From assembly GCF_003334765.1 (NCBI RefSeq), contig NZ_QOWT01000063.1: DNA of 5,656 bases, one strand, 5' to 3'. Source of the DNA: Escherichia coli (GTDB lineage Bacteria > Pseudomonadota > Gammaproteobacteria > Enterobacterales > Enterobacteriaceae). A program made the position numbers and the translations under genes. Below, piece after piece: positions 3,674-4,576 of the stretch (position 1 is the stretch's first letter; the number at the start of each line of letters is the position of its first letter). The notes beneath the pieces are model-generated. The model was given only the letters and a program-made list of their open reading frames with translations, had not been told where the DNA came from and searched no databases.

Positions 3674-4282
3674 TCAACTGTGAGCGGCATCAACCGATGT
3701 ACGGTATGCCATAAGCACGTACTGATCCATCAGATTTGTCAGTGGTTCACTCTGACCCTGACGTGCAATGATCCATTGCTCCAGATCTTTTTCTGATTTG
3801 TGTTTCAGGTTTTTCGTCCAGTCGTCAAGGCTGTTTCCGGTCATTAAGTCAAGCCAGCAGAGCCAGACCAGTTTGAGACGTAACTCCGTGCCGCCAAACT
3901 GACGGAAGAGGCTGATCAGTTTGTTTGCCAGAGAATGTTGCTTCAGGCGCTCACATTCAGACAGCAGGATCCCTTCCAGCATCGGATGATGAACCAGCAG
4001 GTGTTCGCTGGTGCATAAATTCACCACCAGATCATCATCCAGGGACGGGGAGCTCCGTTTGTCCGGACCATAAATCAGCCGGTGCAGACTCTGGGGAACG
4101 ATGGCAATCTCCGGTTTTTCGCCATTGAATGACACCCACCCGGGCGTCAGATTATGGAAATAGTAGATATTCGGATGACACACGCCCCATGATACGGCGT
4201 GCCGGGTGAAGCCGGTCAGCCATTTCTGGTAGTTTTCATGGAGCAGCTCGTAACGGGTCTGATACTGTTGTTTCATTTTCAT
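3674..4282 (-). CDS. Hypothetical protein, about 202 aa, immediately downstream of alpA and probably co-transcribed
   Basis: ORF 3674..4291 in the track with stop TGA at 3674..3676. The track's first codon is GTG at 4289..4291. ATG codons at 4280..4282 and 4274..4276 are preceded by GTGAGGAAT (GAGG, 3-9 nt spacer), so the start is probably one of these. The gap to alpA is only about 80-90 bp. The amino-acid composition looks like a normal protein, but I recognise no catalytic motif. Its size and position after alpA resemble the YfjJ/YagK-like 'inovirus Gp2' family proteins of CP4-type islands; this is recollection, not verified. Confidence 0.65.
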   Translation of the reverse strand: MKMKQQYQTRYELLHENYQKWLTGFTRHAVSWGVCHPNIYYFHNLTPGWVSFNGEKPEIAIVPQSLHRLIYGPDKRSSPSLDDDLVVNLCTSEHLLVHHPMLEGILLSECERLKQHSLANKLISLFRQFGGTELRLKLVWLCWLDLMTGNSLDDWTKNLKHKSEKDLEQWIIARQGQSEPLTNLMDQYVLMAYRTSVDAAHS

Positions 4283-4369
4283 ATTCCTCACGGGGGATAA
4301 CAGGCAGCAGAGCGCCGCCGGCAGGCCGGAGATTGCGTCTGCTGTGGGCGAAGGGTTAGTGGTTAAAAA

Positions 4370-4576
4370 TTACAGACGGGACTGTGCAATACGCGCCTGC
4401 AGCCAGGCTTCCACTTCACTTTTCAGCCAGCGGGAGCTGCGCCCCATTTTGATGGGCGCAGGAAAGCCCCCATCTTTGATGAGTTTGTCAAACCACTTAT
4501 CGGTTAGGCCGGTCAGTTGAGTGATAAACGCCATGTCGACCATCTGGTCATCCATCAGCGAAACTGGGGTAGCCAT
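4370..4576 (-). CDS. alpA: AlpA-family phage/island regulatory protein (helix-turn-helix; excisionase/transcriptional activator-like), 68 aa
   Basis: Translation MATPVSLMDDQMVDMAFITQLTGLTDKWFDKLIKDGGFPAPIKMGRSSRWLKSEVEAWLQARIAQSRL matches the AlpA/Vis consensus (..TG.s..t.y.lik.G.FP.PIK.G.RssRW...EVE.W). The ATG at 4574..4576 is preceded by a strong GGAGG site with a 9-nt spacer (reverse complement of 4577..4590). Stop TAA at 4370..4372. The track's longer 135-aa ORF (to GTG at 4777) is probably an unused upstream extension. Confidence 0.8.
   Translation of the reverse strand: MATPVSLMDDQMVDMAFITQLTGLTDKWFDKLIKDGGFPAPIKMGRSSRWLKSEVEAWLQARIAQSRL

Follow-up and report, generated by a model that had tools for sequence, protein, structure and literature searches.

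Within a 5,656-nucleotide stretch of an Escherichia coli genome (NCBI RefSeq assembly GCF_003334765.1, contig NZ_QOWT01000063.1; hereafter the window), an alpA-family gene is followed by a gene for a 200-residue protein of the Aec62-like family. The two genes form a fixed same-strand pair in the backbone of CP4-type islands of the Enterobacterales, and the spacer between them holds a covarying stem-loop that appears to be a new element, with no counterpart in Rfam. An initial annotation of the window had pointed to a two-gene module at 3674-4576, and both open reading frames (ORFs) were confirmed there, on the minus strand. The known parts are the island class and AlpA; as far as the sequence libraries and a literature search go, the Aec62-like family with its orphan fold, the constant link to alpA and the covarying spacer appear not to have been described as a unit before. 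The pair and its spacer comprise the following features.

4576..4370, minus strand: alpA-family gene, 68 amino acids, TAA stop included; MerR/excisionase-type winged helix-turn-helix protein, RefSeq WP_000235213.1
4294..4346, minus strand: two-tier stem-loop (inverted repeat) in the spacer between alpA and the Aec62-like gene, extent of the covariance-model match
4285..4289, minus strand: Shine-Dalgarno sequence GAGGA of the Aec62-like gene, 8 nucleotides before ATG 4276, from reading of the sequence
4276..3674, minus strand: Aec62-like gene, 200 amino acids, TGA stop (3676-3674) included; mostly helical protein, RefSeq WP_000813432.1, 'hypothetical protein'

The constancy of the pair emerged from a species-level survey that covered 100,044 species by a single genome apiece and gave 43 loci, whose neighbouring genes we typed with hidden Markov models built from labelled neighbours. 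Among the 40 loci with enough upstream sequence, alpA lies immediately upstream of the Aec62-like gene on the same strand in 37, and in 2 further loci only a Zn-ribbon gene stands between the two. Of the 43 loci, 41 also have a Gp2-like gene on that strand; it is of the YagK/YfjJ type (REP_ORF2-G2P, HUH-type) and is a gene separate from the Aec62-like gene. Upstream and divergently transcribed, a gene for a protein of about 300 residues and a YeeP-like GTPase gene are present in 26 loci. Twelve further contexts, read from precomputed Pfam labels, gave a module of a Gp2-like gene, AlpA and one or two Aec62-like genes, plus or minus one or two Zn_ribbon_11/DUF7828 genes and UCP030791, with a gene order permuted from lineage to lineage. 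As a rule the module is flanked by variable cargo on one side and by the island backbone on the other, the backbone being made up of a protein of about 300 residues, a YeeP-like GTPase, DUF932, an antirestriction protein, RadC and CbtA/CbeA. What lies beyond it changes by locus and is mostly defence (BREX with GmrSD; type I restriction-modification; Dnd), with a large helicase, DUF3800 and Shedu in one context and VgrG/type VI secretion genes in others. The proposal that the two genes make up a compact regulated cargo unit is not supported by these results, because alpA is so regularly placed directly upstream and the variable cargo starts beyond the module; where the initial annotation had left it undecided whether the gene after alpA is variable or conserved in homologous islands, the survey found it conserved.

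All 43 loci come from Enterobacterales genera, except for two metagenome bins labelled Clostridiales and Bacillota (L037 and L042). These two contigs carry a complete enterobacterial module with about 60% protein identity and are probably mis-binned rather than the product of true transfer. Within E. coli, the family occurs in 3557 of 5426 complete genomes, at a median of two places per genome. From phages and plasmids the family is practically missing: 1 of 50,697 phage records contains a match, a doubtful one on a 3.6-kb fragment, IMG/VR gave 2 matches, and 9 of 72,556 plasmid records contain the family, several of them of chromosome size. An integrase (an IntA-like ORF) lies within 6 kb in just 2 of the 43 loci. 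Hence the missing integrase that had been remarked on in the window, although a correct observation out to 15 kb, is normal for the module and nothing special to this island.

In some loci the Aec62-like gene overlaps a Zn_ribbon_11/DUF7828 gene or lies 9-16 nucleotides from it (L008, 1653-2574; L016, 10001-10924; L064-L067, about 5995-6900), a spacing that suggests translational coupling and a possible protein partner. Second or tandem Aec62-like copies were seen in islands of Yersinia, Salmonella and Brenneria (L003, 9190-10597; L020, 7273-8525; L032, 5998-6579 and 9043-9606; L043, 5998-6861). E. coli and the other genera differ in how the alpA/Aec62-like segment is oriented towards the Gp2-like gene and the backbone, and we therefore considered an invertible element. 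This was rejected: a search for flanking inverted repeats found none, and gene order in the module is permuted in general.

The spacer, measured from the alpA stop to the ATG of the Aec62-like gene, is 94-107 nucleotides long in 32 of 37 loci, and its inverted repeat ends 20-25 nucleotides before the ATG. The inner stem has the consensus TCCGS-N5-SCGGA; the outer stem has 5-11 base pairs, with a sequence and register that vary by subfamily. In the window copy the outer stem is formed by 4344-4338 with 4311-4305 and the inner stem by TCCGG/CCGG at 4330-4318. On the 3' side of the stem-loop come a conserved GCTGCCTGTMATT block and then an AAGGA ribosome-binding site, and this AAGGA/GAGGA block is invariant across the homologous spacers. 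Over 33 distinct spacers the median folding z-score was -2.57, with 23 below -2; the window copy is by itself unremarkable in folding (z=-1.4). Sense and antisense strands of the stem-loop fold equally well.

Support for pairing came from a covariance model whose seed was 12 sequences from a single subfamily (12 other genera) and which was searched against both strands of 0.67 Mb. Essentially every locus gave a single match, in each case immediately upstream of the family gene (loci L027-L068), and the model matched the window at 4294-4346 with E=0.003. It also reached subfamilies outside the seed, as well as a locus in which a Zn-ribbon gene, not alpA, precedes the family gene (L056), so that the stem-loop tracks the Aec62-family gene rather than alpA. 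In the model alignment 85.9% of cells are paired, compared with 36-52% when the partners are slid, in 11 of 16 pairs both partners vary, and none of 500 shuffles reached the observed covariation; these figures lean towards structure because the sequences are related and their alignment was made to fit the model. When 29 spacers were aligned plainly with MAFFT, the fifth inner pair was G-C in 14, C-G in 12, and A-U, U-A and U-G in 1 each. Bulges and G-U pairs are tolerated. Five divergent loci (L003, L005, L014, L016 and L021) have a hairpin at the equivalent place that is outside the reach of the model, and a search of the whole window against Rfam (E<=1) returned no match, to the spacer stem-loop or elsewhere. 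The element may be an RNA leader, an operator palindrome or a single-strand DNA site.

The start of the downstream gene needed correction. The initial annotation gave a product of 202-205 residues after a gap of about 80-90 bp; the gene is real, and the start at ATG 4276, used in RefSeq and in all homologues, gives 200 residues and a distance of 93 nucleotides from the alpA stop. The 205-residue version, from GTG 4291, marks only the mechanical limit of the ORF. That the ORF is a real gene is argued by its dN/dS of 0.16-0.21 against copies about 90% identical, which indicates purifying selection, and by the occurrence of the exact 200-residue sequence on at least 1000 contigs, where it is always named 'hypothetical protein' or 'Aec62'. 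Coding signal and conservation in related genomes, on which the earlier proposal had been staked, are thus both present, with homologues across enterobacterial genera. The ATG of alpA, at 4576, is preceded by GGAGG 9 nucleotides upstream. A simple scan found no promoter-like hexamers in the spacer or across window 3300-5000. Upstream of alpA there is a weak terminator-like site at 4647-4631 on the minus strand, no better than chance.

Assignment of the first gene to the AlpA family was borne out by profile searches. Its 68-residue product matched Phage_AlpA (PF05930; i-E=1.8e-5, 24.9 bits, residues 13-59), HTH_17 (PF12728; E=1.9e-4) and PHROG 66, 'excisionase and transcriptional regulator' (E=8.1e-9), and scored under the cut-off of TIGR01764 'excise' (19.5 vs 28.8). 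The protein has a single domain and a length inside the 60-75-residue range of Phage_AlpA proteins, and WP_000235213.1 is named 'AlpA family transcriptional regulator' or 'helix-turn-helix transcriptional regulator'. Among solved chains, 8c3t ('AlpA family phage regulatory protein') and TorI come nearest, each as a weak match. Compared by BLASTP, the window AlpA and the AlpA of E. coli K-12 align over no more than 30 residues, with 33% identity (pairwise E=8e-5), and by sequence they appear to be only distantly related. The AlpA of Pseudomonas aeruginosa is a processive antiterminator (PMC7969949). A corresponding action of the window AlpA on the spacer hairpin was dropped as unsupported: the Pseudomonas protein is not among its relatives in the PDB, and the hairpin has no U-tract.

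The second protein had been described as one that could not be placed in any family, and our searches agree. Neither the 200-residue protein nor 35 relatives matched Pfam, even at E<=10; the protein and 9 divergent relatives had no match in NCBIfam, PHROGs or PADLOC-DB 2.0 (0 families); and PDB sequences gave no match to it, either as a single sequence or as a profile. A HMMER pass over 1.84 billion representative proteins returned just 113 matches, many of them fragments. Homologues with 57-66% identity turned up in a word-indexed search, in genera that include Klebsiella, Salmonella, Yersinia, Serratia, Hafnia, Pantoea and Cronobacter, and the farthest family members share 28-34% identity. 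Paralogues are about 30% identical to each other (hhalign probability 100%). A literature search on the accession and on 'Aec62' found nothing relevant to the protein. The name goes back to Aec62 (UniProt Q5K5T0), which avian pathogenic E. coli BEN2908 encodes on its selC-associated island and which belongs to the same family with 88% identity; the name is an ORF number only, with no function, domain or phenotype attached.

An AlphaFold2 model of the protein rose from a predicted local distance difference test score (pLDDT) of 67 to 89 once distant family members were put into the alignment, with a predicted template-modelling score of 0.87. The model has a long N-terminal helix, a beta-hairpin, a variable loop and a seven-helix C-terminal bundle. 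Structure prediction followed by Foldseek had been put forward as one check on the protein; searched against AFDB50, the model found no fold match beyond its own family, labelled only 'Aec62', whose UniProt entries are 88% identical to the protein and superpose on the model with a TM-score of 0.97. Homology within the family is full-length. The residues P61, G102, L104, S106, E107, C108, R110, L111, L139, W141, W153, W168 and Y186 are invariant family-wide, the motifs G-x-L-L-S-E-C-x-R-L and L-C-W are present, and the sole polar cluster among the invariant residues is S-E-C-x-R on one helix. The His-rich stretch LLVHHPMLEG singled out by the initial annotation is indeed there and is not conserved in distant members; the Trp count is 7 rather than about 8.

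Three kinships were tried and rejected. Membership of the YagK/YfjJ-like Gp2 family, suggested earlier, fails in that there is no Pfam match (PF11726 / PF23343), hhalign against K-12 YfjJ gave a probability of 0.1%, and the true Gp2-like gene is a separate neighbour. Kinship with YfjI was given a probability of 0.4% by hhalign, and a profile-profile comparison with UCP030791 was negative.

Several known elements resemble the module in part. In CP4-57 of K-12, as in the window module, an AlpA-family gene heads a same-strand module with a Gp2-like gene, in the order alpA-yfjI-yfjJ, followed by the defence cargo abpAB and rnlAB, and the backbone has similar YeeP/YfjP-type GTPase, antirestriction, RadC and CbtA/CbeA-type genes. 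K-12 AlpA raises intA expression and thereby drives excision. CP4-57 differs in that the slot after alpA is taken by YfjI (DUF3987, 469 residues), not by an Aec62-like gene, and in having an integrase 1.2 kb upstream, whereas the window island has none within 15 kb. Pseudomonas islands associated with transfer-messenger RNA genes have a proposed core of intY, alpA, an inovirus Gp2-like gene and RadC; most of their variable cargo is phage defence, conjugation and capsid genes are lacking, and movement by jumbo-phage transduction has been shown (PMC12595487). They belong to another host order and no Aec62-like protein has been reported in them, whereas the Aec62-like family was found only in Enterobacterales. 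AlpA-family proteins also act as activators or excision factors that head the element operon in Gram-negative phage-inducible chromosomal islands (EcCICFT073 type) and P4-like satellites. Unlike those satellites, the window island has no annotated integrase, primase-replicase or capsid/packaging interference genes within 15 kb. Similar by description is Rox of the Shigella SRL and she islands, a small AlpA-type recombination directionality factor that stimulates integrase-mediated excision in islands with a shared CP4-type backbone.

We tentatively favour, at somewhat less than an even chance, the reading that the pair is a backbone operon within the island's excision, replication or transfer control module, and that the Aec62-like protein is not a cargo effector. 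Both genes would be co-transcribed from upstream of alpA, as the absence of a promoter-like site in or near the spacer suggests. The stem-loop might tune expression of the second gene, or serve as a protein or nick site. AlpA would act as recombination directionality factor and activator, and the Aec62-like protein could be a non-enzymatic accessory or adaptor that works with AlpA and the Gp2-like HUH protein. After induction, the three proteins would steer the island life cycle, first its excision and afterwards the replication or transfer of its circular form. We read the module in this way because of the linkage, the purifying selection, the change of cargo while the pair stays, the apparent coupling with Zn-ribbon genes, and the parallels in CP4-57 and the Pseudomonas islands. 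The CP4-57 slot between alpA and yfjJ, filled by YfjI, whose DUF3987 we take to be replicative-helicase-like, adds an argument from slot equivalence. Several observations weigh against this life-cycle role. The pair is intact in an island without an integrase, which fits an excision-independent role at least as well, and some E. coli islands hold both Aec62-like and DUF3987 genes, which weakens the slot argument. Library and structure searches gave no biochemical clue to the Aec62-like protein; the stem-loop folds alike on both strands; and co-transcription is something we infer.

A related proposal joins the protein to the spacer. The Aec62-like protein may be a nucleic-acid-binding factor of new fold that recognises the stem-loop of its own gene, either as RNA, in autoregulation of the alpA operon, or as a single-stranded DNA origin or nick site of the Gp2-like HUH protein. 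We consider this unlikely on present evidence; if true, such a factor would gate replication or transfer of a very common class of defence-carrying enterobacterial islands. It is somewhat less likely still that the inverted repeat is purely a DNA site, either the origin or nick site used by the neighbouring HUH protein (Gp2-like) or a palindromic operator bound by dimeric AlpA; the Aec62-like protein would then be an auxiliary origin-binding factor. HUH initiators and relaxases recognise hairpins beside a conserved nick region, and a hairpin followed by the sequence-conserved GCTGCCTGTMATT block, folding equally well on both strands and lying amid a Gp2-AlpA module, would suit such a site. However, the motif stays at the start of the Aec62-family gene in L056, where the Zn-ribbon gene has the place of alpA, and in L016 a hairpin at equal offset, beyond the model's reach, precedes the family gene where a Gp2-like gene is upstream. 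The constant distance of 20-25 nucleotides to the ATG, together with the tolerance of bulges and G-U pairs, is rather what is expected of a 5' leader element.

The pair could instead act on its surroundings. That the Aec62-like protein regulates neighbouring cargo, for example as an anti-silencing or transcription-elongation factor, and together with AlpA turns on the variable, mostly defence genes downstream of the module, is a doubtful explanation, to which we give the same weight as to a stem-loop-binding factor. The module adjoins variable cargo and reads towards it in most loci. A small Hha-like ORF lies by alpA in related E. coli islands and survives as a remnant in the window, which hints at H-NS/Hha-type silencing of the region upstream of alpA, and the 1.1 kb upstream of alpA (window 4577-5656) contains no annotated gene and, in a simple scan, no sigma-70-like promoter. 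Yet the protein has no recognisable DNA-binding or RNA-polymerase-binding fold, in the E. coli arrangement the pair reads towards backbone and insertion sequence (IS) debris rather than cargo, and the P. aeruginosa antiterminator is not detectably related to the window AlpA, being missing from its PDB matches. A role as an anti-phage, anti-defence or helper-phage-exploitation effector, raised in part by the initial annotation, seems improbable to us. The islands are loaded with defence systems, and tandem paralogues in some genomes and a narrow taxonomic range are patterns seen in conflict genes; but PADLOC and PHROGs returned nothing for the protein and its 9 divergent relatives, the family is essentially absent from phage records and IMG/VR, its backbone position is fixed, unlike that of a hotspot, and selection is purifying, not diversifying. 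Least of all do we credit the idea that the pair is a functionless remnant of a decayed, integrase-less island. IS fragments and pseudogenes do run throughout the island's left end, with IS21 debris and, in most strains, IS100 just downstream of the pair, but both ORFs are intact with good ribosome-binding sites, and neither the identical protein on so many contigs nor a dN/dS of about 0.2 fits decay.

The carriers of the pair are widespread. About two thirds of the complete E. coli genomes contain CP4-type islands, frequently more than one, and the islands also occur in many other enterobacteria; their cargo includes BREX, restriction-modification, Dnd, Shedu, toxin-antitoxin and virulence genes. 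The alpA/Aec62-like pair and its structured spacer are among the most constant parts of these islands, so that pair and stem-loop together offer a practical marker for the cargo hotspot in new genomes. Once the role of the pair is known, the mobility and regulation of a major carrier of defence genes become testable; should the Aec62-like protein prove a dispensable accessory, it would be merely another conserved hypothetical gene.

A second structured element lies downstream of the Aec62-like gene.

3629..3664, minus strand: perfect 13-bp hairpin, 3664-3652 pairing with 3641-3629 around a 10-nucleotide loop, 10 nucleotides past the stop

The initial annotation had noticed this strong stem-loop, and it is real: the 91-nucleotide hairpin region folds at -40.2 kcal/mol (z=-6.0), with none of 200 shuffles as stable. 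In 1891 E. coli genomes it is single-copy, and it was not found downstream of the homologues in island variants L002 and L011. Judged by this distribution it appears specific to the present island variant, and the conserved element is instead the one in the spacer. The tail after the hairpin, AAAAUACAGU, has no U-tract, and a terminator scan did not call the hairpin an intrinsic terminator; it is possibly a transcript end or stabiliser.

The island around the pair is of CP4-44 type: the window is 100% identical to a region of the E. coli chromosome beside cobU/cobS, where K-12 has the CP4-44 remnant. In this identical record the genes downstream of the pair, in the same orientation, encode a 383-residue orphan protein, a YeeP-type GTPase, DUF932, an antirestriction protein, YeeS/RadC, YeeT and CbeA/CbtA, which make up the CP4 backbone. 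Within 15 kb on either side of the pair, the same record has no annotated integrase and no annotated primase-replicase, capsid-redirection or packaging genes. In the arrangement seen in E. coli, window included, the strand opposite to the pair carries the Gp2-like gene and two Zn-ribbon genes, some 1.5 kb upstream of alpA. The pair is directed towards the backbone, and downstream of it lies a convergent DUF3987 gene or, here, IS debris; the left end of the island is full of IS fragments and pseudogenes.

Further observations concern the rest of the window. Positions 1290-2376 and 2849-3628 (about 1.9 kb in total) contain no ORF longer than 114 residues and no RefSeq annotation, and related E. 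coli islands have the convergent DUF3987 gene there; a tblastn search for a degraded DUF3987 gene in the 2.4-kb downstream gap found none. Between these segments, 2377-2848 holds remnants of an IS21-family element (istA/istB fragments). Most E. coli records have a complete IS100 inserted at window 2813-2816, nested in the older IS21 remnant; it is missing from the window and from E. coli O103:H2 12009, where the stretch runs uninterrupted. The orphan protein WP_000514100.1 (383/387 residues; window 126-1289, minus strand) has a Pro/Thr-rich middle and no Pfam match, and shows a weak 22% match to the proteins of about 300 residues that lie beside the YeeP-like GTPase in other genera, at the equivalent position. 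The Hha-like ORF remnant, at window 5316-5447 on the plus strand, has an in-frame stop and shares 60% identity over 45 residues with a 49-residue, PF05321-labelled ORF of related E. coli islands.

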